A DNA stretch of 64,000 nt from an uncultured archaeon (lineage in GTDB: Archaea; Asgardarchaeota; Lokiarchaeia; Sigyniarchaeales; SOKP01), in contig CAZBPC010000002.1 in the NCBI GenBank assembly GCA_964493715.1, positions 4,814 to 68,813 of the forward strand, read 5' to 3'. Positions 9,971 through 55,021 of the stretch are shown here, piece after piece; within the stretch, counting starts at the first letter, position 1; each line of letters starts with the position of its first letter. A program made the translations under genes and the position numbers. Under the pieces are notes generated by a model. It saw only the letters and a list, made by a program, of their open reading frames with translations. It made no database searches and was not told where the DNA came from.

Positions 9971-10150
9971 TAAAAATCATTTATTTTTTTATGCAAATTT
10001 GTAGTATTATTTCACCCTCTCTTTAAAAAGGAAAATTTTTTATTCATAAAATAAATTTTTTGTTTATTAAATTGAAGAATCTCAATTTATAACAAGGTAT
10101 TAAATATCATCCTTAAATCACGTTAAAAAAAGAAAAATCAAAAATAACAA

Positions 10151-10885
10151 TCATTTAATATCAATAAATTTCAGTAAACCCAAATCATCCAAGTCATCAA
10201 TAATAACCTCAATCTCAGCTTGAGGAATGCCAGCTTCCTCTGCTATATCTGAAATTGTATGAAATCCATCAGCTAAATGCGCAATCTTGTAAGCATTCTT
10301 ATCCAAAAAACCCTGCGTGATAACTTGCCTAGGTAATCTCTTTGAAGTCCATTCAGGTTTCTGATGTTGTACTGTACGTAAATCTTCTTCCGAAACAACT
10401 AACCCTTTCTTAGAAATTTCTTTGCTTTTTTTTAAAAAATCTTTTTCATATATTTTCAAAATTGGAATTTTGAGGGGTACTTCTGCAACCTTACCATTTT
10501 GTAAGATATTGTCGATGATTGCTTCAAAATCTCTAAACATTCGAACATCTCCTGACCAATTCACAAGTTTATCACCAAATTCTTCTACGAATCTCTCGAT
10601 TATGTCACTCAAGCATTTATGTGTGATTTTTGCATCATCATTCTTATCTGCGGCTGCCGTACAGAGAATTCCAGCTTTAAAAACTAATAACAAGTAAAAA
10701 ACCTGCATATCTATGATTTTTAATTCACCTGATCCCTTCGAGAATTCGACGCTAAAATCTTTAAGGGCAGTTAAAAAACCCGAAACCAAATCTTGGTTAA
10801 ATTCTATATTTCCATAACTTCGATGGACAAGACATATTCCCGAATATTGGTGTATCAGATATAGGTTATGAAGAACTTTAGGCAC
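10151..10885 (-). CDS. Longin/roadblock-like N-terminal domain protein with C-terminal winged-HTH
   Basis: 244 aa. The N-terminal LYLIHQYSGICLVHRSYG...LVSGFLTALKDFS pattern resembles longin/roadblock folds. The C-terminal ISDIAEEAGIPQAEIEVIIDDLDDLGLL looks like a wHTH. Confidence 0.35.
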   Translation of the reverse strand: MPKVLHNLYLIHQYSGICLVHRSYGNIEFNQDLVSGFLTALKDFSVEFSKGSGELKIIDMQVFYLLLVFKAGILCTAAADKNDDAKITHKCLSDIIERFVEEFGDKLVNWSGDVRMFRDFEAIIDNILQNGKVAEVPLKIPILKIYEKDFLKKSKEISKKGLVVSEEDLRTVQHQKPEWTSKRLPRQVITQGFLDKNAYKIAHLADGFHTISDIAEEAGIPQAEIEVIIDDLDDLGLLKFIDIK

Positions 10886-11150
10886 CTCCTAATTCAAATA
10901 TTGCGCTCTTATTACAGAAGCAAGACTTCAATTAATTGTTTTAATATTAATAATATTACCAATATTTATAATTTCTGAATTAAAAAATTTGCTGAATATA
11001 ATATTATTTCCATTTTAAATTAGCGTTGTTGAATTATTAATTTTTTCCCTTCAGCTTCTTTTATTCTGTAGGGTGATAAATTTAAGATATTATCAATTCA
11101 TTTTTCTAAAACGTATGAATATTAATTTCTAAAATATTGTTTAATACTCT

Positions 11151-11318
11151 TCATAGAGGATATGCAAAATCGACACATAATTCTTTACACATTATTATCA
11201 AAGCACCAAACTCTGTAATCCCTTCAATCACTCTCTTCTTTCCCAATACATACTCTTTAATTTCATTTCTGGTTAATCCAGTTTCTTCAATTATTGCCCT
11301 CAAGATTCTTTCATTCAA
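11151..11318 (-). CDS. Small protein resembling the N-terminal helical domain of archaeal RPA-like proteins
   Basis: 55-aa ORF (TTG start, GGTG 10 nt upstream): MNERILRAIIEETGLTRNEIKEYVLGKKRVIEGITEFGALIIMCKELCVDF. It is antisense to the listed ORF 11137-11322. Confidence 0.35.
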   Translation of the reverse strand: MNERILRAIIEETGLTRNEIKEYVLGKKRVIEGITEFGALIIMCKELCVDFAYPL

Positions 11319-11412
11319 TTAATCTCAACACCTGCTGCTTAAACTTTGAATTCGGATTGAATTAATATCCAGAATTAATTATTTAAACTCCGATTAAATT
11401 TTAAAGTCTAAA

Positions 11413-12147
11413 TTAAAATTTGAACCATCTACTATCATTTTTTAACGTTTCATATTCATTTAGATCTCCAAAATCTCCATAGAAGTGATCTTTACTCATT
11501 TTGAATACTCGAACTTGCCAGTTAAGATACTTGATTCCAAATCTTATAGTTTCAGGAATTTCAATTTCACCCCTAGCAGATGGTTTTTGTTTCTTTAATA
11601 TATTAAATATCTTTTTTGAAAGTATAAATATCCCCGCATTGTTTAGATTCGTTGAAGATGTTCCTTTAGGTGGTTTTTCAATAATTTCTGAACAATATTG
11701 ATTATTTAAGTATATAGCGGCACCCTTATAGGGATCATCAACTAAATTCCCCACTAAAATGAAATCTGGGTTTTCTTTTCTATAAATTTCGATTATTTCT
11801 TTATAAACTTCATATGAAACAAGCGTATCTCCCCATGTTAAGAAAAAGACAGAGTTATCAATAAACTTTTCACATAAAAGGACAGCTTCACCTGTTCCAT
11901 TTAACTCCTTCTGTTCTATATAGGATATCTTTATTCCCCAATTACGACCATCTTGAAAATAATCGATAATTTGCTCTTTACGATATCCAACAACTAGTAT
12001 GAAATCAAGAATTCCCGCTCTTTTTATACCTTCAATAATGAATTCTAATACTGGTTTACCCCTAAATGGTATCATTGTCTTTTGATAATCATCCGTATAG
12101 GGTTTCATACGCTTTCCAAAACCAGCACAAAGTATAATTGCCTTCAA
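11413..12147 (-). CDS. Sugar-1-phosphate nucleotidyltransferase
   Basis: 244 aa. N-terminal MKAIILCAGFGKRMKP signature of NTP-transferase (GlmU/RmlA-like) enzymes. Confidence 0.8.
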   Translation of the reverse strand: MKAIILCAGFGKRMKPYTDDYQKTMIPFRGKPVLEFIIEGIKRAGILDFILVVGYRKEQIIDYFQDGRNWGIKISYIEQKELNGTGEAVLLCEKFIDNSVFFLTWGDTLVSYEVYKEIIEIYRKENPDFILVGNLVDDPYKGAAIYLNNQYCSEIIEKPPKGTSSTNLNNAGIFILSKKIFNILKKQKPSARGEIEIPETIRFGIKYLNWQVRVFKMSKDHFYGDFGDLNEYETLKNDSRWFKF

Positions 12148-12160
12148 AAATCATTCCCCT

Positions 12161-13108
12161 TTATGTATAATTAAATAACTTGAATATCCAAGCTTTTCCA
12201 CCAGCATCTCTTATAGATTTTGCAACTTCTTCTTGTTTTCCCGGACATAGTGCGATCATACACCCTCCTCCTCCCGCACCCATTTGTTTCGCTCCTAATG
12301 CTCCCGCTTTCCTTGAAACCTGACATAATTCTTTAATTTTTTGAGTATCTGCTTTCAAGATGGCTTCTTGGTCTTGTTGAGTATTCATTAATAACCCTAA
12401 TTTTTGAAAATCCCCTCTTAGCAATGCTTCTTTTCCTTCATTTACACATTTTTCAATGATATTAAACGCTTTTATTGTTCCGGGTTCTTCCTTTTTAATT
12501 TGAATTTTTATCCTATTTAAAATAGAACTAGCCTTTCTTTCTTCAAGGGAATCGCCTATCACCATTGGTAATTCTTTAATATCTATTCTCTCAACTGTTG
12601 TATTAGCATCCGTATGAATAAAACTTACTCCTCCATGAGCTATGCTATATTGATCCATTCTACCACATTGGATACCTAATTCGTGATTTTCTCCCCAGAA
12701 AGCAATTTCAGCAATATCATTATTTCGTAATCCCAAACTATATGCTCTATTCATTACCTTAAGGAACCCTACTGATATAGCTGCTGATGTTGATAACCCA
12801 CGACCTATAGGAATATTAGAATTTACTTCCAAATAAAATCCCGTATTAATCTTTTCATTCAATCGTTCATATAAAACACTCCAATAAGAAAGATCTTTAT
12901 TTCGGGGAGGAGTATCTCCTAATTGAAATTCTATTTTTTCTTTAGTATTGTGACTATAAAATGTAATTGATGAGTTATCACATTTTATAAAATTGAAATT
13001 CATCATTAAATCGATTGTTGCTGCGATCACGGGTTTCTCCATTAAATCAACTTTATCCCCTAAAATACAAATGCGACCAGGTATTGAAATAGAGAATTTA
13101 TCCGACAT
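12161..13108 (-). CDS. GHMP-family sugar kinase
   Basis: GHMP motif PIGRGLSTSAA and C-terminal GAGGGGCMIAL. The start is moved to the internal ATG (MSDKFSISIPGRICILGD). Forms an operon with the downstream nucleotidyltransferase. Confidence 0.75.
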   Translation of the reverse strand: MSDKFSISIPGRICILGDKVDLMEKPVIAATIDLMMNFNFIKCDNSSITFYSHNTKEKIEFQLGDTPPRNKDLSYWSVLYERLNEKINTGFYLEVNSNIPIGRGLSTSAAISVGFLKVMNRAYSLGLRNNDIAEIAFWGENHELGIQCGRMDQYSIAHGGVSFIHTDANTTVERIDIKELPMVIGDSLEERKASSILNRIKIQIKKEEPGTIKAFNIIEKCVNEGKEALLRGDFQKLGLLMNTQQDQEAILKADTQKIKELCQVSRKAGALGAKQMGAGGGGCMIALCPGKQEEVAKSIRDAGGKAWIFKLFNYT

Positions 13109-20026: not shown

Positions 20027-20494
20027 ATGTGTGCAGAAGAATTTACCAGCTTTTTAGAAAATGCTCGTAAATCTCCGATTGAAGAAAAGATCAATGCTTT
20101 TGGAGACATCGTTGAAAAAATGATGATCATGTTCCTAAGGATTCCAGATCTTGTTGATCAAGCCTTACTTACAATTAATCAGCAAATAACAACAATGGAA
20201 TCACGAATTAATACGATAAATACAGAAGTATCTAATATAAAGACAAAATCTACCCTTTCAACTCCAATTGTAGCCACACCTACCGCTCCGAGTAGTGCGC
20301 CTCCTCCATCAGGAGGACCACCTGGAAGACCACCTGGAGGACCACCTGGAGGACCACCTGGAGGACCACCTGGAGGACCACCGCCTCCACCTGGAGGACC
20401 ACCTGGAGCTGCTCGTCCTGCAAATCCCCAAAGTTTAAGGGGAGCAATAATGGGTGAATTAAAGCAATTATTTGCCAAACGGAACCAAGGTTAA
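20027..20494 (+). CDS. Polyproline-repeat protein (helical N-domain, (GPPG)n tract, C-terminal amphipathic helix)
   Basis: 155 aa. APPPSGGPPGRPPGGPPGGPPGGPPGGPPPPPGGPPGAARP is followed by SLRGAIMGELKQLFAKR. Confidence 0.6.
   Translation: MCAEEFTSFLENARKSPIEEKINAFGDIVEKMMIMFLRIPDLVDQALLTINQQITTMESRINTINTEVSNIKTKSTLSTPIVATPTAPSSAPPPSGGPPGRPPGGPPGGPPGGPPGGPPPPPGGPPGAARPANPQSLRGAIMGELKQLFAKRNQG
20311..20410 (+). repeat. 12-nt tandem repeat GGACCACCTGGA (about 7 units) encoding GPPG repeats
   Basis: Direct reading of ggaccacctgga iterations. It generates the spurious antisense ORF 20179-20478. Confidence 0.9.
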
Positions 20495-21431: not shown

Positions 21432-21602
21432 AGAACTTCACGTGAAAATGATTACAATAATGATATATAAACCAAAACTAAAAAAATTTAGCTTTTTTAA
21501 TGAGAAATTAAAGTATACCATAAAATTTTTTAGGAATGCTTAATTATGATAAGTACTCTTTTTGATTGAAATGATTAAAATTAAGGTGAGTGGACAATAG
21601 GC

Positions 21603-22703
21603 ATGGAACATAAGTCTCTATCAATAGAAGAAGATGAAAATTTGTTAATCAAGATCCTTGATGATGCAGATATGCGTTACATAATACTGTATATGTATAT
21701 AATTCGAAATGATTTGCTAAAGGATCTTAGTGATTCTAAAATGATAGAATCTTATGAACGTGTTTTAATCTTGGATGAAATATTTAAAAATAATATAATT
21801 GAATTTTGGGATGAAGAATTCATTGAAATAATGATAGATCTGGGTCTATTCAAAAATATAAGAAGTTTGGGAGAGTATAACAAATTAGAAGGAGATTTTA
21901 TCCTAAAGTTAGGAGAAGAAACCATTACAATTGAAAACAACACGATTTCTGTACCCGATGATATTCTCTTCTTAATTATTAAAAAAAAATTCAAATTTTT
22001 GAACAGAAGGAATTTCAATCTCGCACTTACGAGATTAAAAGGAGTCAGTTGTGAAAAAAGCAGTATTATTCATCCTTTTATTTATGAAATTGGAGATCAC
22101 GACTTTACTCTTTCTAATGATCTTTATTATATATTGGATCAATTTGGAAATGTATATCAATCAGTTAAAATTGAAATTACAATTGAAGGATTTTACCAAA
22201 GATTTGAAGAATTACTTGAAAAAGTCAATAATTTTATTGATATATTTGATCCCGTTTTAAATTCTAAACCAGGAATGAAAAGGATTGATGAGGCTCTAGA
22301 ACAAAACAAAGAAGTCATATCATTTCTAAAAGATTCAAAAATTCAACTTTCAGATAAATTTAATTTAGAAAATGTTGAAAAGTCAGATGATACATATAAG
22401 AAGTGGTATACACAATTAACGATTTTACTAAATTCGAGGTATCAATTAAATAAGATTCAAGATAAACTGAATGAATTAAGAAGTTATTATTCAGGAAAAA
22501 AAAAAAAAAATAATTATCTTGAATTTATTGAAAAAATCTCGTTTAATGAAAATGGAATAGTTAATACTATTCAAAACACACTCATCAAATTAAGAAAAGA
22601 AATTGTTGAAATTAATACTCAAATTTCGGATTTTACAAAAAAAAAATTAAAATTATTAAATTTAGATTATGAAAGAATAATTGTTGAAAGCAAGAATGAA
22701 TAA
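21603..22703 (+). CDS. Operon gene 1: hypothetical protein with C-terminal coiled coil
   Basis: 366-aa ORF. AAGGTGAG lies upstream. Contains an A15 tract at 22496-22510. No recognisable motif. Confidence 0.5.
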   Translation: MEHKSLSIEEDENLLIKILDDADMRYIILYMYIIRNDLLKDLSDSKMIESYERVLILDEIFKNNIIEFWDEEFIEIMIDLGLFKNIRSLGEYNKLEGDFILKLGEETITIENNTISVPDDILFLIIKKKFKFLNRRNFNLALTRLKGVSCEKSSIIHPFIYEIGDHDFTLSNDLYYILDQFGNVYQSVKIEITIEGFYQRFEELLEKVNNFIDIFDPVLNSKPGMKRIDEALEQNKEVISFLKDSKIQLSDKFNLENVEKSDDTYKKWYTQLTILLNSRYQLNKIQDKLNELRSYYSGKKKKNNYLEFIEKISFNENGIVNTIQNTLIKLRKEIVEINTQISDFTKKKLKLLNLDYERIIVESKNE

Positions 22704-22705
22704 TT

Positions 22706-23665
22706 ATGATATGTCCATCATGTAATGTTGAAATGGAACCCCTTGTAGCAGGTATCTTTCAATGCCCTAATTGCAGAAAGATAGTAAAATCTAAAGAAAA
22801 AACAAGTAAAAATGTTTCAGACGAGGGTGAAGATAAAGGAGGATTTTTAGATGGAAATTATTTTCATGACCAGTTAACATTAAATAAAGAGTATGAAATT
22901 TGTGAAAAAGGTATAATTATCAATAAAACAGAAACTAGAGTACTGGCTGCTCTAATTTGCCATAGTCCATTGTTAAAGAGTGAAAGATACGTTCGACTTT
23001 CATGGTGGAAAACATATCAACACGCAGGAATGCTTAAAATTTATGAAAGTCACGTTCTAACTAACCTAATTAAAGCCTTAGAAAAATTTGATGAATCTTT
23101 TGATGATTTGTGGAACTGGAAAGGAAAATTTGATAAAAAGGATTCAAAAACTGAAGAGGATCTAGAAAAAGAGAAAAAATTAGACATCATTAAATATCGT
23201 ATATTAGAGAATCGAACATGCCCTAATTGCCAACAGAAAATGGAAAAACATAAATCTCATTATATCTGTCAACATTGTTCAGAAATTGTTATTTTAGAAG
23301 GATATAATCAACCAATTTTTAATATCGATTCTAAAGATCTTGATTTGAGATTTCATAGTAATTTTCCCATTAATTTTTATATGCCTACAAGTGGAATAAC
23401 CATCAAATGGCTTGTAGGTGAATGGAAAGCTATAGTCGTTATTTATTCAAATAATAACCCTAATAGACGCTGGCTTAGATTTTATTGGTGGACTCGGGAT
23501 TTAAGTAAATTAATAAAATATGGACAAAGGGAGATGACTGAAGGTACTCAAATGGGATGGAAAGCGCAAAAGGGAGTGTCTTCTCCAAATATATTTGATA
23601 AAAAGAATATTAGACCATTGATTAATGCTTTGGAAAAGATTTCTAATGAATTAAATTGGAACTAA
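22706..23665 (+). CDS. Operon gene 2: internally duplicated zinc-ribbon protein
   Basis: 319 aa. Two modules each contain a CxxC...CxxC ribbon (CPSC..CPNC and CPNC..CQHC), an R[YW][VL]R[LF]xWW[KT] motif and an [IL]xALEK[FI] helix. Confidence 0.55.
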   Translation: MICPSCNVEMEPLVAGIFQCPNCRKIVKSKEKTSKNVSDEGEDKGGFLDGNYFHDQLTLNKEYEICEKGIIINKTETRVLAALICHSPLLKSERYVRLSWWKTYQHAGMLKIYESHVLTNLIKALEKFDESFDDLWNWKGKFDKKDSKTEEDLEKEKKLDIIKYRILENRTCPNCQQKMEKHKSHYICQHCSEIVILEGYNQPIFNIDSKDLDLRFHSNFPINFYMPTSGITIKWLVGEWKAIVVIYSNNNPNRRWLRFYWWTRDLSKLIKYGQREMTEGTQMGWKAQKGVSSPNIFDKKNIRPLINALEKISNELNWN

Positions 23666-23682
23666 AATAGGAAAGAGAAAAA

Positions 23683-24822
23683 ATGGAAAAAAGAACGAAT
23701 TCTTCATGGCAAAACCTCTTACAATCATTTGAAAAAGGGCTTGAATTGGCAATCGATCAAGTAAAAAAACGTGATGTTGAAAGCATACCTGGAGCAAAAG
23801 ATGCATTAGTTCAACGGCTTGAAAATATGAAATTACACTTTCCTAGGAATAATGGTGATTTATTTAAGAAAGCAGTAAATGAAAAAATCCAATTTTTTTT
23901 TTTCCCTAAAACTAAAAATTTCTCTGAAGCATTTAGTAAGATTTTAAATTCCCGGACCCATGAACAAGATTTTATAATAAATGAGTTACTCAATGGTTTT
24001 GTCACCTCCAAGGCAAAAGCAATCGCCTCGGGAACGCAAGTGCCTATTATAGATAGGATGGTAGAAGCTTTTAGTAAAAGAAATGATTTCCACATAGTGG
24101 ATCATCAATTTTATGCTATGTTTGGGGATCCAAATAAACCTCGACATTATGTTAAAAACCAACTTGAAGAACTTGTCAATATGTTTGGATTAATCTCTAA
24201 GAAGCTTATCATTGAGAAAGATGTAAGACGAAGTGAGGAGAAAGTTTATACTTTTTACACCTTTCCTGATGATATTATTAAAATCCTTGAAGAAAAATAC
24301 CTAATACTTGATACTAAATTAGGATATGCTTATGTTTCTAAAAATTTTGATAGAAATGTATTTATATGTATGTTTTTAGCAAATGTAGCAATTAACAGTG
24401 ATAATATTGAAAAAATTGGAGGTTCTTATACCATAAATGGAATTTGTGCCATTTTTGCATTAATTTTATTACTGAGTTTTATGCCAAAACTATCCGTGGA
24501 CGAAACAAATCCAATTTTAAATGATCCTGGTTATAATGAAAGTAATATGAGTGTTATTCCAAAATCTTGGATGATGCGACAAGTTTTAGAGCCATTATTT
24601 GAACCACTGATTAAAATTATTGCTTATAGATTAGGGGGAGGTTTATGGCTATCAAAAGTTATTGATTCAGAAATAAATAAAAGGATTCACAATCAAATAC
24701 GTTTCTTATTAAAAGATGTCAATAAATGGGTGTTGGGTGAACTAGTACGTGTAGAGATTCCAATTTTTGTAGAAATTGCGAATATCTTTGCAGAAATTGT
24801 AGTTGGATATGATAAAGAATAA
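23683..24822 (+). CDS. Operon gene 3: hypothetical protein with central hydrophobic segment
   Basis: 379-aa ORF, 17 nt after gene 2. No recognisable motif. Confidence 0.5.
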   Translation: MEKRTNSSWQNLLQSFEKGLELAIDQVKKRDVESIPGAKDALVQRLENMKLHFPRNNGDLFKKAVNEKIQFFFFPKTKNFSEAFSKILNSRTHEQDFIINELLNGFVTSKAKAIASGTQVPIIDRMVEAFSKRNDFHIVDHQFYAMFGDPNKPRHYVKNQLEELVNMFGLISKKLIIEKDVRRSEEKVYTFYTFPDDIIKILEEKYLILDTKLGYAYVSKNFDRNVFICMFLANVAINSDNIEKIGGSYTINGICAIFALILLLSFMPKLSVDETNPILNDPGYNESNMSVIPKSWMMRQVLEPLFEPLIKIIAYRLGGGLWLSKVIDSEINKRIHNQIRFLLKDVNKWVLGELVRVEIPIFVEIANIFAEIVVGYDKE

Positions 24823-24845
24823 ATTAACTATTAAAATGAGATATC

Positions 24846-26147
24846 ATGAGTTATTCAAAAAAACCTGCAAGAAAATCTGGACGTAAGCGCGAGAAATGGA
24901 CTGATATTTTACCAAGATACCTTACATTTATTAGTCATATGAGACCAATTCTTAGAGAAACAAGAAAAATTGTTAGTGATTTGGATGCAGATTTATTGAT
25001 AGACACAGAAATCTTAGATAAAATTCGTGAAGAAGAGGAAAAAAGAAATATAAGAAAAGTAAGAGCACTTTCCGAATTCTCTGCAATGTATCGATCTAAT
25101 GTTTATGAAATAATCAAAGGCTTTATTACTAAATATAGAGGAACAATTCCAATTATTGATATTAAAGATTACATCATTGAGTTCTTACATGAATCTATCG
25201 GTGCTCTATATATTTTAAGACATATAACTAATCCAGATCAAAAAAATTTGGATGATACCTACCTTTATTCTCTTAGCAAATTTATAGAAGAGCGTTTATT
25301 TCATAAAGGTGCAAATTTAAGAATGATATATGAAAAACTTCATAAATTTTCGACGGAATACTATGAATGCCAAAGACATTTATTGCAATCACATACCTAT
25401 TACAGAGAGAAACTAGATAATTCTGATTCATTTGAAATACCAGGAATCTCTCCAAAAATGTATCAAATAATAAACAACATTACATCATTGTTTAATCTTG
25501 ATCCTAGTTTCGGGGTTTTTCCAGAACGACCTGATTATGAAATTCCAATGATTTTAAAAAGTGATATATTTTTACCTTATATCGACTCTATAGCTAATGC
25601 AGAAGAGGAATCTATTGAAAATCTAGCTGAACGAATCGGTATGCGATTAATTGATGATCTATTTTTAGCACCTAAAGAGGAATTTGTAAATATATTAGAA
25701 GAAAATAATTATTTAAGAACAAATAAACAATCCGATGGAACAATAAGATATTTACCTCAATTTAGTAATGAAACCCTTATCTTGCATTACCTTGCATTTG
25801 TTTCTCAACGGAGGGGTTTTTTATCAAAAGAATTGATTAATTGGATTTCGATGAATTTTGCATTTTTGATATATATGGGGATTTTAAAATGGAAATTATC
25901 AGATGAGAATATCTTTTATTCAATATTTAAAGATTTACAAACTAATGAAAAAATTTTACCTTATTTAATGAAGCTAATTTGTTTTCCGAATTATCTTGGA
26001 TTAGATAAAATGAAGATAAGAGACTCAGTTCAATATAGGAAGGAAATATTTAATTTTATAGGATCACAAATTGATAATTTAAAAGATCTCATTAATGAAG
26101 TTGCACTATTTTGTGAAAAATTTGATAAAGAAAGAAAGAAAAACTAA
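24846..26147 (+). CDS. Operon gene 4: hypothetical protein
   Basis: 433-aa ORF with a basic N-terminus (KKPARKSGRKREK). No recognisable motif. Confidence 0.5.
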   Translation: MSYSKKPARKSGRKREKWTDILPRYLTFISHMRPILRETRKIVSDLDADLLIDTEILDKIREEEEKRNIRKVRALSEFSAMYRSNVYEIIKGFITKYRGTIPIIDIKDYIIEFLHESIGALYILRHITNPDQKNLDDTYLYSLSKFIEERLFHKGANLRMIYEKLHKFSTEYYECQRHLLQSHTYYREKLDNSDSFEIPGISPKMYQIINNITSLFNLDPSFGVFPERPDYEIPMILKSDIFLPYIDSIANAEEESIENLAERIGMRLIDDLFLAPKEEFVNILEENNYLRTNKQSDGTIRYLPQFSNETLILHYLAFVSQRRGFLSKELINWISMNFAFLIYMGILKWKLSDENIFYSIFKDLQTNEKILPYLMKLICFPNYLGLDKMKIRDSVQYRKEIFNFIGSQIDNLKDLINEVALFCEKFDKERKKN

Positions 26148-26180
26148 ATAATAATATACCGAAAAAAGAGATGAAAGAAA

Positions 26181-27290
26181 ATTTCTAAATTAAAAGATGA
26201 TCTTGAAAAGAAAGTAATATTTACGGATGACGTTATTAGAGAAAGACTTGGGAAATATGGTGTGGTATACTTTCCGGAAGATATTAAAGAATCCGTTGAT
26301 GATATATTAGGGAATGCAAAGATAAAAGAAATACTTGAAGATTTCTTCAAAGCTTTGAACAAGTATTATGATTTTGTGGAACAGTTAAAAAATACCAATT
26401 TAGCTCCAAATCTCACAGTACTTTTATATGGTCCTCCAGGAACAGGCAAAACCTCACTAACTAGAGGATTTGCAAAAAAATATGGCGTGCCAATATGTGT
26501 AGTTGAATCAGATCGCCTTGTTTCACCGTTATTAGGAGATACAATTAAAAACATAAGAAATGTGGTGGAGTTAGCTTCAGAAATTTCTAAAGAGAGAGGT
26601 GCTTTTGTTTTATTTTTTGATGAAATTGATGCTGTTGGTTCAGAACGATCCAACACACATGAAGTAGGAGAAATCAAAAGAGCTGTCATTTCGTTTTTAC
26701 AGGTAATTGATAGAGTAAATTATGAAGGTGTACCATTAGCAATATTCGGAGCCACAAATCACCAACATCAATTAGATTCAGCAATATGGAGGCGCTTTAC
26801 ATTTCATTTTAGATTTGATTTTCCGGATTATAATTTAAGAAAGAAGATAATTGAAGCTTTTTTAGATAAAATCAAACAAGCAAAAATAGGTGTTGATAAT
26901 CAAATTTTTTCTAATTTAAATGAGGAATATAATCGTATGCAAAAAATTGAAAAAGAAATTACAAATAAAATGGGGCAGAACGTCACTGAATTTGATGATA
27001 TAATATTATGGAATGAAATTTCCAAGAAAATTAAAGGAGAGGGGTTATTAAAATTGACTCACGGATATTCTGGATCTGATATCGAAAGAGGAACTAAAGT
27101 TGCATTATTAAAAGCGATTACTATCGAACTCCTAACTTACGATCTATTCTATGATTCCTTAAAGTTAGTTGGAGGTACAGCAATTCATGTCGAACGTCAA
27201 AATACTCTAGCAACTACGAGAGGATTCATATTAAAAGATGAAAGAAATGAGAAAAAATCTAATAGGGATAATAAACCTCCTGAAATTTAA
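26181..27290 (+). CDS. Operon gene 5: classical-clade AAA+ ATPase (start probably ATT at 26181; first GTG at 26262)
   Basis: Walker A LLYGPPGTGKT, Walker B FFDEIDAV, second region of homology GATNHQHQLDSAIWRRF, and YSGSDI near the C-terminus. No MIT or other N-domain. Confidence 0.8.
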   Translation: MSKLKDDLEKKVIFTDDVIRERLGKYGVVYFPEDIKESVDDILGNAKIKEILEDFFKALNKYYDFVEQLKNTNLAPNLTVLLYGPPGTGKTSLTRGFAKKYGVPICVVESDRLVSPLLGDTIKNIRNVVELASEISKERGAFVLFFDEIDAVGSERSNTHEVGEIKRAVISFLQVIDRVNYEGVPLAIFGATNHQHQLDSAIWRRFTFHFRFDFPDYNLRKKIIEAFLDKIKQAKIGVDNQIFSNLNEEYNRMQKIEKEITNKMGQNVTEFDDIILWNEISKKIKGEGLLKLTHGYSGSDIERGTKVALLKAITIELLTYDLFYDSLKLVGGTAIHVERQNTLATTRGFILKDERNEKKSNRDNKPPEI

Positions 27291-27329
27291 TCCTTTAATA
27301 TATGAATATGATAATAAAATTGATGAAAA

Positions 27330-28370
27330 ATGTCAAAAGATTACATTCTTGATTTAAGTAGAATAAAAAGTATCACACAACCTTTATTAACCCTCCAAAA
27401 TGGATTAGGGTCCCTTTCCCCTTTATTAGAGCAAATAGAGCAATCGAAAAATGGTTTTCATAAAATCCTCTTTTTAAATATGGATAAACAACAATTTAAT
27501 CAGATAATAACTCTAATTCAAGAATTACATAAGGAATTAACTCAAATAACACACAAAAATATCACTAATTTCCTTGCTTTTCAAGATAATTTGTTGAAAA
27601 AATATAGGGAGCAATATAGAGATCGTTTATTAAGATTGAAAATCGACCAGGAAAAAAGTAAAAACCTTGGCCTTTACTTAATTGGTCAGAAAAAAATAAG
27701 CAAGGTAGATCATCAGATTTCCTACGTTAACTCTATTATTCTGGATGACTGGTTCAATCTTTTAGATTCTTTAAATCAAAACTCTAATTTTTTGAGTTTA
27801 ATCCCTAAAATAAGAGATTATTACAAAAAAATCACTCACAATAGATTAAAAATGGAATTAGAAAAGATACCTGAGGAATTTGATGTAATGATCAAACGTG
27901 AATTCAAGAATGCTTTTAATGAAGATCCTGATTTATCTTTTGAACAATTTTTCAATGAAAATGAAAAGATGTTAACTGCTGCCGATTTAAACACAAGAAG
28001 AGAAGTGTTACAAAGAGTCAAGGAAAAAGAAGAATTAGAAAAATTAAAATTAAAGCAAGAAGAGCAAAATCAAGGTTATAAAGATTACTTAAAATTATCT
28101 GCAAAAGAATTTGAAAGGCGAAGGAGAAAAAAATCAAGAGAAAAATTAAGTGAGATTGATATTTCTTCCAACCCAAAAGAAGAAATAGAAATTAGTAAAG
28201 AAGTATCTGAGAAAATAGAACAATTTAAATCACAATTCGAAAAAAAATTTCAAGATGATTATTTAACAGGATTAGATCAAGAACTAGATCCACTAGATTT
28301 AATTAGAGAAAGGAAAAAACTGAAAGCTGAAGAGTTTAAGAAATTCAAAAAACATTTTGATCAGGAATGA
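27330..28370 (+). CDS. Operon gene 6: K/E-rich coiled-coil protein
   Basis: 346-aa ORF with a highly charged C-terminal half. No recognisable motif. Confidence 0.5.
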   Translation: MSKDYILDLSRIKSITQPLLTLQNGLGSLSPLLEQIEQSKNGFHKILFLNMDKQQFNQIITLIQELHKELTQITHKNITNFLAFQDNLLKKYREQYRDRLLRLKIDQEKSKNLGLYLIGQKKISKVDHQISYVNSIILDDWFNLLDSLNQNSNFLSLIPKIRDYYKKITHNRLKMELEKIPEEFDVMIKREFKNAFNEDPDLSFEQFFNENEKMLTAADLNTRREVLQRVKEKEELEKLKLKQEEQNQGYKDYLKLSAKEFERRRRKKSREKLSEIDISSNPKEEIEISKEVSEKIEQFKSQFEKKFQDDYLTGLDQELDPLDLIRERKKLKAEEFKKFKKHFDQE

Positions 28371-28374
28371 ATAA

Positions 28375-29991
28375 ATGACAGTTGAGGATGAACATAAACA
28401 AATAACTATAGGAACGCAGAAATATAATATCCAAGATAAGTTAACATTGATATTAGGAAAGATTAAAGACGATGACTTAATCTCATTTAAGGATGAAAAT
28501 TTAGTTGATTTAATCACAAATTTAGATCCTTTACCAGTAGAGAATATTATTAAAAATCTAAAATCAGTTTACCCCGTTATCACAAAATCGATCAATCTCT
28601 TGAAATACTTAAAAGATTATATTAAAACTATCGAATTAAATACTGAAATTATATCAGATTATAATAAATTGGCTCAGAAAATCATTCTTTCATTTCAATT
28701 CGTATTTCTGAACAATGAAAAATCTCAACTCAATGACGAATTAGAGATCGCAAAATTATCCAAGCAATCAAGTGAAATAAAAGCAATTTCAGATTTATTG
28801 GAGAAGTTAAATGAATCTTTAGCACATAATAAAACCAATTTGACTTATTTAGAGCAAGATTACCAAAAAAAGAAAAATCAAATTGATAAAATAAACCAAG
28901 AAATCCAAAATGCAAATGATATTATACAAAGCTTGACAAATAAGAAAAAATTATGTTTTAGGTATATCAATAACATCACACGTAATATGGATTTATCATC
29001 AAAATTAATAATTAATGAAGCAGAAATCAATTCAACATTAGATTTAGATCCTGATTTAACCAATGCTGAAAAAATCAGAAAACTGCAAATTAAAGCAAGA
29101 GAAATACAGCATGACATAAATCAGCATAAATTAAAAATAGACGAAACTAAACTTAAATATGACAATTTATCACCCCAATTTAAAATAATTAGTGAGGATT
29201 ATGAAAAACTTGTTCATTTGATTGAAGAAGATGAAAATAAAGTAAAAAAAAAAGAACATAAACTGAAAGATATGATATCAGGATTAGATCCTAAAATGAA
29301 TGAAAAATTACAAAAAATTGATTTTAGATCTATTCAAACCCCCTCCCAAATAGAATCAGAATTATCAAATATTGAATCGAGATTAAATACAATTTTAACA
29401 AACGAAACCTTCATCCATGATAATTCTTTTATTAAAGTCGAGGAGGTAATAAAGGAGCTTAATAAATTAATTATTTATTCAAAGAAAAATAAAAACCAAA
29501 TTACAATTTCTGATGCAAATCAAAAATTCACCGATATGTTTGAAGGCTACTTCACATTAGAGTCTATTGTTAGTAAATTAGAGGAAATACTTAATTTACT
29601 ATTAAGTGAGATAGATTTACGAGTAAACTTAGAAATATCAATTACCGAAGGATATACAAAATTATTAATTCATCCTCAATTTGCCAGAAATAAGGCACAA
29701 AATTTACAATATGATGACTTAACGACCCCCGAAAAGATATTTTTCGTAATTATAATGTACATATCAATAAAAATGCTCCAAAAATCAAAAACAATACTTT
29801 TTTCAAATGTTTTCATTCCCGAATCTTATAATAAGCGAGGATCGATATTTAGAACAATTAGAAGGTTAGTCCAAATTTTTGAGAGAAATTCTTATTTCAA
29901 TGATTATACTATCGTCTTTATAATTTCAAATTTAGAATTGAAAAAACAAATGGAAAATATAAAAATAATAAAAATTAAAGAAAGTGATTAG
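28375..29991 (+). CDS. Operon gene 7: SMC/Rad50-like coiled-coil protein with degenerate ABC-ATPase head motifs
   Basis: 538 aa. The N-terminal KLTLILGKIKDDD sits where IVGPNGSGKS would be. A coiled coil of about 350 aa follows. The C-terminal LTTPEKIFFVIIMYISI...ILFSNVFIPESYN...YTIVFIISN parallels LSGGEK...ilDEpd..LD...viTH with the catalytic residues replaced. Confidence 0.45.
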   Translation: MTVEDEHKQITIGTQKYNIQDKLTLILGKIKDDDLISFKDENLVDLITNLDPLPVENIIKNLKSVYPVITKSINLLKYLKDYIKTIELNTEIISDYNKLAQKIILSFQFVFLNNEKSQLNDELEIAKLSKQSSEIKAISDLLEKLNESLAHNKTNLTYLEQDYQKKKNQIDKINQEIQNANDIIQSLTNKKKLCFRYINNITRNMDLSSKLIINEAEINSTLDLDPDLTNAEKIRKLQIKAREIQHDINQHKLKIDETKLKYDNLSPQFKIISEDYEKLVHLIEEDENKVKKKEHKLKDMISGLDPKMNEKLQKIDFRSIQTPSQIESELSNIESRLNTILTNETFIHDNSFIKVEEVIKELNKLIIYSKKNKNQITISDANQKFTDMFEGYFTLESIVSKLEEILNLLLSEIDLRVNLEISITEGYTKLLIHPQFARNKAQNLQYDDLTTPEKIFFVIIMYISIKMLQKSKTILFSNVFIPESYNKRGSIFRTIRRLVQIFERNSYFNDYTIVFIISNLELKKQMENIKIIKIKESD

Positions 29992-29997
29992 AAATTT

Positions 29998-30495
29998 ATG
30001 GAAAATCAAGATATTGAAACTACTGTTAGAAAAATAACAAAGCTCATTTTAACAAATCCTCAAAAATTAATAAGAGAAGAAGACTTGAAAACTTTAAGTA
30101 GCGAGCAAGATTTTGAGGATCTTATAAGTAAAGTTTACATTAATTTACAAAATGTTGGATTTGAATTAATCAAAACAAAATTTTTTGACCAAAGCTTCTA
30201 TGTGTTAACCACCGATGGCATGGATGACACTATCTCACCCTCTCAATATGGAATATTAGCTTTAATAACTGCTCTTAGTAAAGAACTAGAAGAAAATTTA
30301 CCAATAAAAGATATTAAAGAATTATTTGCCGAAGTATGGGATTCAGACGTTAAATTGTTAATAGATAATGATTACTTAAGAGAAAATGAGGATTTAGCAA
30401 TTATTAGAGTTTCTCCTCTTGGAAAAGCCATACTAAAGAATATAATTCAAGATCTAAGATTAAAAAACTTGTTAAATGTTTTTGAAGAAGAATAA
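29998..30495 (+). CDS. Operon gene 8: tandem winged-helix protein, ScpB/kite-like
   Basis: 165 aa. The first WH ends in GFELIKTK...FYVLTT. The second begins ISPSQYGILALITAL...IKDIKELF..., paralleling the ScpB pattern LSxAxLEvLAiIaY..It..eIeeirG. Confidence 0.4.
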   Translation: MENQDIETTVRKITKLILTNPQKLIREEDLKTLSSEQDFEDLISKVYINLQNVGFELIKTKFFDQSFYVLTTDGMDDTISPSQYGILALITALSKELEENLPIKDIKELFAEVWDSDVKLLIDNDYLRENEDLAIIRVSPLGKAILKNIIQDLRLKNLLNVFEEE

Positions 30496-54775: not shown

Positions 54776-54882
54776 TGGCGGGCTATGAGGGAATTTCGCA
54801 ATCATCCTATTCGGACGAATCTATCGAACCCCCGACCCCCCGGTTAAGAGCCGGATGCGCTACCTAGCTGCGCCAATAGCCC
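54776..54882 (-). tRNA. tRNA-Lys(CUU) with 30-nt intron in the T-loop (59/60) and encoded CCA
   Basis: Cloverleaf read by hand: acceptor GGGCUAU/AUAGCCC, D arm GCGC-AGCUAGGUA-GCGC, anticodon arm UCCGG-CUCUUAA-CCGGG, T stem GGGGG/CCCUC. Intron 54793-54822 with BHB UUCG[AU|A]...CGAA[AU|U]. Confidence 0.85.
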
Positions 54883-54920: not shown

Positions 54921-55021
54921 CGCAGACGGAGGGATTCGAACCCCCGAGCGCTCACGCGCACCGGTTTACTCGAATATGAAAACACTCAAGACCGGCGTCT
55001 TACCAACTAGGCTACGTCTGC
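54921..55021 (-). tRNA. tRNA-Ser(UGA) with 18-nt canonical 37/38 intron
   Basis: Acceptor GCAGACG/CGUCUGC, anticodon stem CCGGU/ACCGG, loop CUUGAG..A, long variable arm GCGC-GUGA-GCGC, T arm GGGGG-UUCGAAU-CCCUC. Intron 54967-54984 with BHB CUUG[AG|U]...CGAG[UA|A]. Confidence 0.85.

Follow-up and report, generated by a model that had tools for sequence, protein, structure and literature searches.

The window analysed here is a stretch of 64,000 nucleotides in which eight co-directional genes (g1 to g8) occupy positions 21603 to 30495 of the plus strand. We interpret this operon as a lineage-specific SMC-family machine that is vertically inherited in Lokiarchaeia, driven or reset by an AAA+ ATPase, and probably active on DNA. 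Its function is unproven, and we consider this reading as likely to be wrong as right. If correct, the operon would encode an undescribed relative of SMC complexes, in which an SMC-like subunit devoid of an ATPase of its own invariably has a separate AAA+ ATPase as partner, along with four proteins of unrecognised fold. The features are as follows.

21432 to 21602, no strand: elf1-g1 intergenic region of 171 bp, inferred to hold the operon promoter
21603 to 22703, plus strand: g1, 366 aa, acidic (pI 5.1), with a K/E-rich C-terminal third and an unrecognised fold
22706 to 23665, plus strand: g2, 319 aa, internally duplicated CxxC..CxxC zinc ribbon plus Trp-rich domain
23683 to 24822, plus strand: g3, 379 aa, the most conserved subunit
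24846 to 26147, plus strand: g4, 433 aa, fold unrecognised, with a basic N-terminal tail, KKPARKSGRKREK
26168 to 26183, plus strand: g5 translation start, with an SD-like GAGATGA (26168-26174), a 6-nt spacer and ATT (26181-26183)
26181 to 27290, plus strand: g5, 369 aa, classical-clade AAA+ ATPase of an IetA-like subfamily
27330 to 28370, plus strand: g6, 346 aa, helical-looking, with a K/R/E-rich C-terminal half
28375 to 29991, plus strand: g7, 538 aa, short SMC/Rad50-fold protein
29998 to 30495, plus strand: g8, 165 aa, acidic (pI 4.5), tandem winged-helix protein of the KITE type

The first-pass annotation, made from sequence alone, had described eight tightly spaced co-directional ORFs, with g5 starting at 26181, between a divergent elf1 and a convergent LSm gene and without signs of a provirus. 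All of these claims held. The ORF table returned the coordinates as first listed apart from the start of g5 (see below), every boundary pair matched, and the intergenic gaps from g1 to g8 are 2, 17, 23, 33, 39, 4 and 6 nt, the two widest lying on either side of g5. The flanking genes were confirmed as Elf1 (PF05129) and LSm (PF14894), and an SD-like GGTGA is located 14 nt upstream of the g1 ATG. No integrase was found near the operon, there is no tRNA within 24 kb, a search for long flanking repeats found none, and GC content is 0.25-0.32 throughout, without a shift at the operon.

The operon is a real eight-gene unit, far beyond chance, since the same order recurs in about 60 independent loci and the dN/dS values of its genes lie between 0.08 and 0.32. 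The arrangement of Elf1, the eight genes and LSm is kept with very little change in these Lokiarchaeia loci and in the cultured strain Prometheoarchaeum syntrophicum MK-D1. Values for g1-g5 and g8 are 0.08-0.14, compared with 0.09 for Elf1 and 0.07 for LSm. All eight genes are co-inherited under purifying selection.

The predicted structure of g7 (AlphaFold2, pLDDT 85.4) shows SMC/Rad50 architecture. Its N- and C-terminal halves make an ABC-type head, and its arms form an antiparallel coiled coil of about 140 residues without a hinge or zinc hook. The top PDB matches in Foldseek were Rad50, LmuB, Smc, JetC, Smc5/6, MukB and cohesin (E=5e-8 to 1e-4), and a viral library returned Rad50/SbcC-like proteins. 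None of the 81 g7 orthologues carries a Walker A or signature motif; the ATPase motifs are replaced by conserved LIxGKFKKN, LTTPEK (80 of 81 orthologues), IIFSN, NK(R/A)GSI(F/Y)R and ISN.

The adjacent g8 is a KITE-type tandem winged-helix protein, as shown by its predicted model (AlphaFold2, pLDDT 75.5), which contains two H-β-H-H-β-β units. Foldseek placed MAGE-G1/Nse3 (4e-5) ahead of the Nse1-3-4 complex (3.6e-4) and ScpB (7e-4), with MukE and JetB further down. The Foldseek TM-scores were low (0.15-0.38), which we attribute to coiled-coil geometry and two-domain flexibility. For g6, which is less conserved (identity about 42%, dN/dS 0.22), we propose a kleisin-like bridging role. This is inferred from position only, and hhalign detected no similarity between g6 and the proteins encoded after the SMC in deep lineages, the candidate partners.

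The sole intact NTPase of the operon is g5. A mechanical ORF caller places its start at GTG 26262 rather than at ATT 26181, yet the peptide encoded by 26181-26262 is conserved among orthologues (consensus ..YTDDVIKERLGKYG..). In many orthologues an ATG aligns with this ATT, which is itself present in about 14 of 36 orthologous loci, and gene callers give orthologue lengths of 367-369 aa in related genomes. Together with the SD-like site, these observations support translation from a conserved non-canonical AUU start. The protein matches PF00004 (7.8e-27), the PADLOC IetA model (1.2e-58), the NCBIfam IteA model (176 bits, 8.9e-52, against a cut-off of 510 bits) and phrog_3757 (8e-58), with Cdc48/p97 as best PDB match (1e-34). 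Walker A (GPPGTGKT), Walker B (FFDEID), the SRH (..WRRF) and a non-aromatic pore loop (SPLLGDT) are intact in all 77 orthologues, and the C-terminal PPEI in 75 of them. The N-terminal extension is short.

The remaining four subunits are conserved proteins without a recognisable enzymatic motif. Apart from the zinc ribbons of g2, neither g1-g4 nor g6 had a match in Pfam, NCBIfam, PHROG, PADLOC or PDB profiles, and no catalytic-type residue is conserved in g1, g3 or g4 over the deep lineages. g1 (identity about 62% over some 60 loci) has homologues in L089, L090 and L092-L095, with no polar residue invariant among deep lineages. In g2, both Cys quartets are invariant in the orthologue alignment, each unit carries a Trp-rich domain of about 120 aa with the motifs SWWK and RFYWW, and the halves align with one another (E=3e-4). 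The DNA repeat ATGCCCTAATTGC occurs within the gene at 22762 and 23218, and in the Helarchaeota locus L090 the halves are two separate small genes. Its Pfam and PDB matches do not go beyond the zinc-ribbon level. g3 (identity about 79%, dN/dS 0.08) contains a single, conserved, strongly hydrophobic stretch at aa 245-273 whose hydropathy reaches TM-like strength. Just 29 representatives of its family were found in 1.84 billion proteins, every named one Asgard, and even a diverse profile found no PDB match. g4 (identity about 78% between loci) has homologues in 605 clusters, the best 120 all being hypothetical proteins of Asgard MAGs or unnamed; its residues invariant in deep lineages are hydrophobic or structural only. 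With its zinc ribbons, g2 may be a nucleic-acid binder, as may g4 (basic tail) and g6 (K/R-rich).

Four protein-level claims of the first-pass annotation also held: a classical AAA+ ATPase without an N-terminal adaptor domain (g5), a coiled-coil protein with degenerate ABC/SMC head motifs (g7), a duplicated zinc-ribbon protein (g2) and a ScpB-like tandem winged-helix protein (g8), for which ScpB is among the top structural matches, behind Nse3/MAGE. Linkage that persists in eight deep lineages strongly supports the annotation's proposal of a multi-subunit machine in which an SMC-like scaffold is joined to an AAA+ motor. The proposal would have been refuted by profile assignment to a described system or mobile backbone, or by a neighbourhood unconserved in relatives; no such assignment emerged, and the neighbourhood is conserved. 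The annotation had left the role open among DNA organisation, defence and cytoskeleton; the evidence leans towards a vertically inherited housekeeping function without settling the matter.

In the deep lineages L090-L096, g3-g4-g5 are contiguous, and an SMC-like gene of about 1,000-1,075 aa lies directly downstream, except that in L092 a minus-strand g2 homologue intervenes and the L096 contig stops before the downstream gene can be identified. The g1/g3/g4/g5 set, plus g2 where the locus reaches that far, adjoins a full-length SMC of some 1,050 residues in these sister lineages. L090, L092, L094 and L095 retain all three of Walker A, signature and Walker B. In L093 the gene is truncated by the contig end, though its Walker A is intact, and in L091 the motifs are degenerate. 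Two or three small partner genes follow the long SMC in four loci, the last being a g8 homologue in three, and such genes are visible only where contigs extend far enough. The Helarchaeota cluster ends in a homologue of g8 (hhalign 96.6%), and L091_172 is another. No homology between g7 and the long SMCs is seen at the sequence level. The deep-lineage clusters have no single fixed genomic place.

Variant loci were also found. The g6-g8 trio occurs without adjoining g1-g5 in L007, L008 and L087, and in L007 and L087, where g6 accompanies g7 and g8, it directly follows a defence-type module of HerA-like, DpdB-like and PAPS-reductase (BrxP/SspD-like) genes. L084, with a genome of 2.27 Mb, keeps operon remnants only. 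The module is thus separable and dispensable. Searches of 2.9 million viral contigs returned no relatives of g3, g4 or g7, plasmid and phage records contained none of g3 or g4, and no effector domain was detected in the operon.

In the mechanism we propose, nucleic acid would be held or bridged by an SMC/kleisin-like/KITE core made up of g6-g7-g8. Within the order that includes this window and MK-D1, the SMC subunit may have shrunk to a short, ATP-blind scaffold, an idea that rests on fold and gene position because g7 lacks sequence homology to the long SMCs. With g7 ATP-blind, a g5 hexamer would be the sole energy source, and g5 with g1-g4 may remodel the coiled-coil scaffold, whether by loading, opening, resetting or disassembling it, by analogy with NSF and SNAREs or TRIP13 and HORMA proteins. 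The operon's fixed place in the chromosome, its housekeeping-level conservation and its lack of an effector suggest that it works constitutively to organise or maintain the chromosome or DNA, rather than serving as a mobile defence cassette. MK-D1 has a canonical SMC-kleisin-KITE operon elsewhere (supplement, bioRxiv 10.1101/2024.01.07.573240), so the eight-gene complex is an additional one. However, direct evidence of DNA binding, complex formation and expression is lacking. Profile searches place g5 nearest to a family of anti-phage ATPases, the Foldseek TM-scores are low, the possible g3 transmembrane segment fits a purely chromosomal machine poorly, and the separation of g6-g8 from g1-g5 in L007 and L087, with the dispensability seen in L084, also counts against this reading.

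The main alternative, which remains possible and is still live, is a domesticated core system against mobile elements, of the Wadjet/Lamassu/Smc5-6 kind. Recognition of aberrant or foreign DNA would fall to the SMC-like and KITE proteins, and g1-g4 with the IetA-like AAA+ would carry out or control the reaction to it. This alternative is favoured by the far better fit of g5 to IetA anti-phage models than to those of PAN, CdvC and Cdc48 (1e-58 against about 1e-24), by LmuB and JetC among the g7 fold matches, by the defence-type module beside g6-g8 in L007 and L087, and by the varying genomic places of the deep-lineage clusters. Against it, no nuclease, protease, TIR, Sir2 or other effector was detectable with Pfam, PADLOC or NCBIfam, the IetS protease partner is absent, g1, g3 and g4 have no conserved catalytic residues, and PADLOC JetA, JetB, JetD and LmuA models found no match. 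Unlike typical defence islands, the locus shows housekeeping-level conservation and is fixed over an order.

A role away from DNA, as a coiled-coil cytoskeletal, membrane-associated or protein-remodelling assembly, appears unlikely. Here the ATP-blind SMC-fold protein would be only a structural rod, disassembled by the AAA+ in NSF-like fashion. The loss of every nucleotide-binding motif from g7, the conserved TM-like stretch in g3 and the placement of g5 in a classical clade of protein remodellers support it. However, the partner in sister lineages is a true SMC in which hinge-like and ATPase motifs are present, KITE proteins are not known to partner anything other than DNA-acting SMC complexes (ScpB, MukE, Nse1/3), and g2, g4 and g6 are inferred to resemble nucleic-acid binders. 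It is improbable that g1-g5 and g6-g8 are unrelated neighbours, although g6-g8 lie apart from g1-g5 in L007, L008 and L087 and the internal gaps are widest (33 and 39 nt) around g5. g3-g4-g5 adjoin an SMC-like gene in at least six independent deep lineages and MK-D1 despite extensive rearrangement elsewhere, and such persistent linkage is otherwise hard to explain, which argues for a functional tie. An integrated virus, plasmid or other mobile element is all but ruled out: most products lack a known function, as is common in such elements, and phrog_3757 matches g5, but there is no integrase, tRNA, flanking repeat or GC shift, no relatives appear in viral contigs, phage records or plasmid records, and dozens of genomes keep the locus in synteny between housekeeping genes.

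Our preferred reading, a lineage-specific SMC-family machine, places the operon closest to the SMC-kleisin-KITE complexes (Smc-ScpAB, MukBEF, and Smc5/6 with Nse1-Nse3-Nse4). Shared features are the ABC head and antiparallel coiled coil of g7, a small KITE gene beside the SMC-fold subunit, the operon organisation and, in sister lineages, a full-length SMC that retains Walker A, signature and Walker B, with small partner genes behind it in several loci. In contrast, g7 is just 538 aa, hingeless and devoid of all ATPase motifs, the products have no sequence match to SMC_N, ScpA or ScpB models, and no kleisin is identified. No described SMC complex has counterparts of the five extra conserved subunits, among them the AAA+ ATPase, and MK-D1 carries a canonical SMC operon as well.

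Wadjet (JetABCD) and Lamassu (LmuACB) are likewise multi-gene operons, and their resemblance lies in the short-armed g7, whose fold matches LmuB (9hqu_A) and JetC, and in g8 as a KITE-like partner comparable to JetB. The eight-gene operon differs in lacking a JetD/Toprim or LmuA-type effector and PADLOC matches to JetA, JetB, JetD or LmuA (LmuB reached merely E of about 0.08-0.09), in its ATPase-dead g7, where JetC and LmuB are active, and in its vertical, syntenic, housekeeping-level conservation. With IetAS (Ietos; the AAA+ ATPase IetA and the subtilisin-like protease IetS) it shares an AAA+ core, g5 being closest to IetA profiles, whereas the 176-bit score is far under the equivalog cut-off of 510, the first 90 or so IetA profile positions are uncovered, no IetS protease is present and the gene context is entirely different. 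Compared with the archaeal mre11-rad50-herA-nurA operon, it has no Mre11 or NurA nuclease, its ring ATPase is classical AAA+ rather than HerA/FtsK-type, and g7 has no zinc hook or ATPase motifs. The two nevertheless both couple a Rad50/SMC-fold coiled-coil protein to a ring ATPase, and Rad50 is the top structural match of g7.

The eight plus-strand genes g1 to g8 (21603-30495) form a compact block, with intergenic gaps from g1 to g8 of 2, 17, 23, 33, 39, 4 and 6 nt. The first-pass annotation had proposed eight open reading frames and a list of their boundaries, and both held exactly. Its flanking genes are Elf1 (PF05129), transcribed divergently, and LSm (PF14894), transcribed convergently. 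GC content across the region stays at 0.25-0.32, the nearest tRNAs lie at window positions beyond 54 kb, and no flanking repeats were found around the operon; nothing in the GC, tRNA or repeat evidence points to an island. Rfam identified no RNA elements within the operon. The window sequence is identical to two JGI metagenome contigs.

Two minus-strand tRNA calls, each made by one tool only, are a tRNA-Lys from ARAGORN (54796-54881) and a 101-nt Rfam tRNA, possibly containing an intron (54921-55021). The conserved upstream neighbour of the operon (20027-20494) encodes a 155-aa protein with a (PPGG)n tract, which is coded by a 12-nt tandem repeat (20306-20422). A mirror ORF on the strand opposite this gene is probably spurious.

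A g7 profile was scanned against one genome per GTDB species, giving 101 relatives, 80 of which were kept. These come nearly all from Asgard ('Promethearchaeota') MAGs, the exceptions being a few 'uncultured archaeon' records and two records titled Bathyarchaeota and Nanopelagicaceae. The order Elf1, g1 to g8, LSm and a cobW-like GTPase gene is intact in about 60 loci, namely those long enough to show it.

Genes of the conserved block, with length and identity to the window
g1, plus strand, 366 codons, no profile match: about 62%
g2, plus strand, 319 codons, zinc-ribbon protein: about 68%
g3, plus strand, 379 codons, no profile match: about 79%
g4, plus strand, 433 codons, no profile match: about 78%
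g5, plus strand, 342 codons (369 with the upstream start), AAA+ ATPase: about 72%
g6, plus strand, 346 codons, kleisin candidate: about 42%
g7, plus strand, 538 codons, SMC-like: about 36%
g8, plus strand, 165 codons, predicted KITE: about 62%
Elf1, divergent flank: about 73%
LSm, convergent flank: about 80%

Measured against the close relative L010, dN/dS is 0.08-0.14 for g1 to g5 and g8 and reaches 0.22 in g6 and 0.32 in g7; the housekeeping genes on either flank lie at 0.09 (Elf1) and 0.07 (LSm). The g3 family has only 29 representatives in 1.84 billion proteins, and its named members belong to Prometheoarchaeum syntrophicum MK-D1 (DSAG12_00347), one MAG of Helarchaeota and further Asgard MAGs. 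In MK-D1, the complete set of eight genes lies between Elf1 and LSm, presumably as locus tags 00345-00352. Its canonical SMC-kleisin-KITE genes are located elsewhere in the genome (supplement, bioRxiv 10.1101/2024.01.07.573240), so the cluster represents an additional system in this organism.

Structure models were generated with AlphaFold2 for g7 and g8 only. For g7, no significant sequence match was found anywhere, including Pfam and a PDB profile search. In its model (pLDDT 85.4), three strands at the N-terminus are followed by two antiparallel helices of about 140 residues and then by a strand/helix unit at the C-terminus. This predicted topology corresponds to the SMC fold, with an N-/C-terminal ABC-type head and a long antiparallel coiled coil. 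The top 50 Foldseek matches listed from the PDB comprise Rad50, LmuB, Smc, JetC, Smc5/6, MukB and cohesin (E=5e-8 to about 7e-4, probability about 1.0), the only other entries being an integrative model and the motor domain of a dynein. A viral structure library returned only Rad50/SbcC-like proteins. TM-scores are low because the coiled-coil geometry differs, so the SMC assignment is based on topology and on the agreement among the hits.

The predicted head lacks the motifs of an ABC ATPase. Neither Walker A (GxxxxGK[ST]) nor the signature LSGG[EQ] occurs in any of the 81 g7 orthologues, and the place of Walker B (hhhhDE) is taken by IIFSN; the other residues found at motif places are LIxGKFKKN, LTTPEK (80/81) and NK(R/A)GSI(F/Y)R. 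At the apex (aa 207-229), the model shows a short low-confidence loop and a helix, with no hinge, zinc hook, globular domain or CxxC.

The g8 model (pLDDT 75.5) contains two consecutive winged helices, and its best Foldseek matches in the PDB are MAGE-G1/Nse3 (4e-5), the Nse1-3-4 complex, ScpB (7e-4), MukE and JetB. Nse3, ScpB, MukE and JetB are KITE subunits of SMC complexes. We therefore predict that g8 is a KITE with tandem winged-helix domains, at the level of fold only; the ScpB Pfam model does not match it. The g6 product may be the kleisin, a possibility suggested by position alone: it has no Pfam or PDB match, it does not resemble the proteins encoded after the SMC gene in sister lineages, and hhalign comparisons with the 281- and 292-aa proteins of the Helarchaeota locus L090 were negative.

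The g5 product is a classical AAA+ ATPase (PF00004, 7.8e-27) whose best PDB relatives are Cdc48/p97 (1e-34). Profiles of the anti-phage ATPase IetA match it much more strongly (PADLOC 1.2e-58, NCBIfam 8.9e-52, phrog_3757 8e-58) than do the PAN, CdvC and Cdc48 family models (about 1e-24). Against the NCBIfam IetA equivalog, it scores 176 bits, with a cut-off of 510. Walker A (GPPGTGKT), Walker B (FFDE[IL]D) and the arginine-finger SRH (WRRF) are present in all 77 orthologues. Pore loop 1, whose position was assigned by reading the alignment against the usual clade motif, is SPLLGDT (26480-26500) and non-aromatic in 77/77. In classical AAA+ proteins, the aromatic pore-loop-1 residue of [KR]-[YWF]-x-G, absent here, serves substrate threading. 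The C-terminus (27279-27290) reads PPEI in 75 of 77 orthologues and may act as a docking motif.

Mechanical ORF calling starts g5 at GTG 26262. The first-pass annotation had instead placed the start at ATT 26181, and this held on three grounds. The peptide encoded by the 27 codons upstream of the GTG is conserved in all orthologues. The ATT aligns with the ATG of many orthologues and is itself present in about 14 of 36 loci (L050, L039, L030, L061 and L074 among them), the others having ATG or TTG. An SD-like GAGATGA sits 6 nt upstream (element and start, 26168-26183). Because the start codon is a non-canonical ATT, standard gene callers shorten g5 by 27 residues. The unusual AUU start suggests that the level of g5 is kept low by translation, an inference made without expression data.

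Scans of all eight proteins with Pfam, NCBIfam, PHROG and PADLOC detected only the AAA+ domain of g5, the zinc ribbons of g2 and coiled-coil noise, and the same scans on distant homologues gave nothing further. Profile-HMM comparison of g1 to g4 and g6 to g8 with PDB sequences yielded no meaningful match, leaving g1, g3, g4 and g6 unmatched in all five resources. The g2 protein consists of two tandem copies of a unit that joins a zinc ribbon to a Trp-rich domain; hhalign found no internal paralogy between g1/g6, g3/g4, g2/g8 or g1/g8. Since the residues of g1, g3 and g4 that are invariant across deep lineages are hydrophobic or structural only, these proteins look like structural subunits, not enzymes. 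A strongly hydrophobic, TM-like stretch of g3 (aa 245-273, window 24415-24501; Kyte-Doolittle 2.27) persists in relatives at 22-30% identity; it could anchor the protein in a membrane or be a buried helix, between which we do not choose. A weak REase_II match of the Helarchaeota g3 homologue (E=7e-4) was dropped, as no acidic or lysine motif is conserved in the g3 family.

Seven loci with distant g3 homologues (L090-L096, roughly 20-30% identity) provide insight into the history of the cluster. The genes g3, g4 and g5 are contiguous in all seven, and g1 and g2 homologues were found in most. An SMC-like gene directly follows g5 in L090, L091, L093, L094 and L095; in L092, a minus-strand g2 homologue stands between the two, and the L096 contig stops before a downstream gene can be identified. 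The SMC-like proteins measure about 1,030-1,075 aa where complete, and they match SMC_prok_A/B at 1e-12 to 1e-44. Those of L090, L092, L094 and L095 have a canonical Walker A (e.g. GRNGVGKS, GKNGTGKS), a signature S-x-G-Q and a Walker B ..IDEF. The L093 gene, cut by the contig end and thus lacking its C-terminus, keeps Walker A and a hinge-like motif. The full-length, 1,034-aa protein of L091 (14390-17494) has lost both Walker A and Walker B (LISGKYEVDKK; TTLDLSNEE) and is a possible intermediate step from the active long SMCs to the short ATP-blind g7.

The small genes after the long SMC fall into three orthologous families: X (about 290-325 aa, with weak winged-helix matches in the L090 and L092 members), Y (about 280-320 aa) and Z. 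L090, L094 and L095 carry all three; L091 has just a partial Y and Z, and the L092 contig stops inside X. In the window and in MK-D1, the ATP-blind g7 of 538 aa stands, by position, where a once-active SMC stood. Sequence homology has not been shown, as hhalign of the g7 profile with the long SMC of L090 aligns the coiled coil only. In L095, an Elf1 gene (12063-12623) adjoins the long-SMC cluster downstream on the same strand, so Elf1 adjacency recurs outside the window's order.

Other loci have rearranged or lost the system. In some Lokiarchaeia (L007, 78-9239; L008; L087, 3039-12059), the trio g6-g7-g8 is kept and g1 to g5 are replaced, directly upstream, by genes for a HerA-like ATPase, a 131-aa protein, a DpdB-like protein (PADLOC, 6e-30) and a PAPS-reductase/Fe-S protein (BrxP 7e-50, SspD 8e-22). 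In L087, the trio still adjoins LSm, and g7 is broken by a frameshift. The complete 2.27-Mb chromosome CP070805.1 (L084) retains beside LSm only g8 and an N-terminally truncated g7 that starts at about residue 163 (10043-11634), with g1 to g6 absent at the locus, apparently a case of system decay in a small genome. These variant loci and L084 indicate that the two modules are separable and that the system is dispensable in some lineages.

Taken together, the evidence gives good support to a cluster that combines an SMC-fold protein with a KITE, an AAA+ ATPase and structural subunits, all of them inherited together. The reading we favour, at about even odds in the absence of expression, interaction or DNA-binding evidence, is a constitutive SMC-family machine acting on DNA. 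In such a machine, the AAA+ ring, with g1 to g4 as adaptors, would load, open or reset the SMC-like/KITE scaffold, and in the window's order it would have become the only ATPase.

A role in defence in the style of Wadjet, Lamassu or Smc5/6 remains possible. It draws support from the likeness of g5 to IetA and from the defence-type genes next to the trio at the variant loci; against it stand the lack of any detected effector, the fixed locus and constraint at the level of housekeeping genes. That the proteins serve a structural role not on DNA seems unlikely to us. It is similarly improbable that two separate operons merely happen to be adjacent; the linkage of the g1-g5 module with the SMC/KITE module is ancient, since the deep-lineage loci share it. 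A mobile element can be all but ruled out, because the searches of such elements turned up no relatives: scans of viral contigs with g3, g4 and g7 alignments returned nothing, and neither did tblastn against plasmid and phage records.

Beyond the constitutive SMC-family machine lies a bolder reading, towards which we are rather more sceptical than favourable, in which motor function was handed from the SMC heads to a dedicated AAA+ ATPase. The cluster would then encode an SMC-derived machine of a new class, present in the prokaryotes most closely related to eukaryotes. SMC complexes are universal DNA-folding motors, and to our knowledge no described SMC complex is powered other than by its own ABC ATPase heads. 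The proposed series would run from an active SMC with an AAA+ ATPase (deep lineages) through a long ATP-blind form (L091) to a short, hinge-less, ATP-blind form (MK-D1 and the window). The dark subunits g1 to g4 would act as the adaptor that links the AAA+ ring to the SMC/KITE core, and the KITE, with Nse3/MAGE as its nearest structural relatives, would tie the system to the Smc5/6 branch.

The cluster, conserved among Asgard archaea, couples an SMC-family protein to an AAA+ ATPase that is a protein apart and to four others whose fold is unknown; one order has an SMC head that is permanently ATP-blind. Should the parts cooperate, they would constitute a new mode of driving or regulating an SMC-type scaffold and an extra SMC-like system in the lineage that gave rise to eukaryotes, and the scenario in which the Asgard ancestor of eukaryotes had two SMC complexes (bioRxiv 10.1101/2024.01.07.573240) might have to be revised. 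This can be tested directly, as the full operon is present in the cultured MK-D1 and the proteins are small enough to reconstitute.

Compared with known systems, the cluster fails the tests for canonical SMC-ScpAB, Wadjet, Lamassu and IetAS, and we found no account of it in the searchable literature on Asgard AAA+/coiled-coil clusters, Lokiarchaeia SMC-like proteins, kleisins, defence, Ietos and MK-D1. For Wadjet (JetABCD), the PADLOC models of JetA, JetB, JetC and JetD match no window protein, and the match of the L007 homologue to JetC spans the coiled coil only. For Lamassu, the g7 fold resembles 9hqu_A; LmuB models reach only E=0.08-0.09 against the window, and there is no LmuA. For IetAS, g5 matches the PADLOC IetA profile at 1.2e-58 yet stays well below the NCBIfam equivalog cut-off (176 vs 510 bits), and no S8 peptidase or other protease domain that could represent the IetS partner occurs in the eight genes. 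As a member of the classical AAA+ (PF00004) clade, g5 has Walker A, Walker B and the SRH arginine fingers but not the aromatic pore loop. With respect to SMC-kleisin-KITE complexes, functional ABC ATPase motifs and a hinge or zinc hook are absent from g7, while the SMC fold and the KITE subunit are matched, at the level of predicted structure, by g7 and g8; the ATPase motifs are present instead in the long SMCs of L090, L092, L094 and L095.
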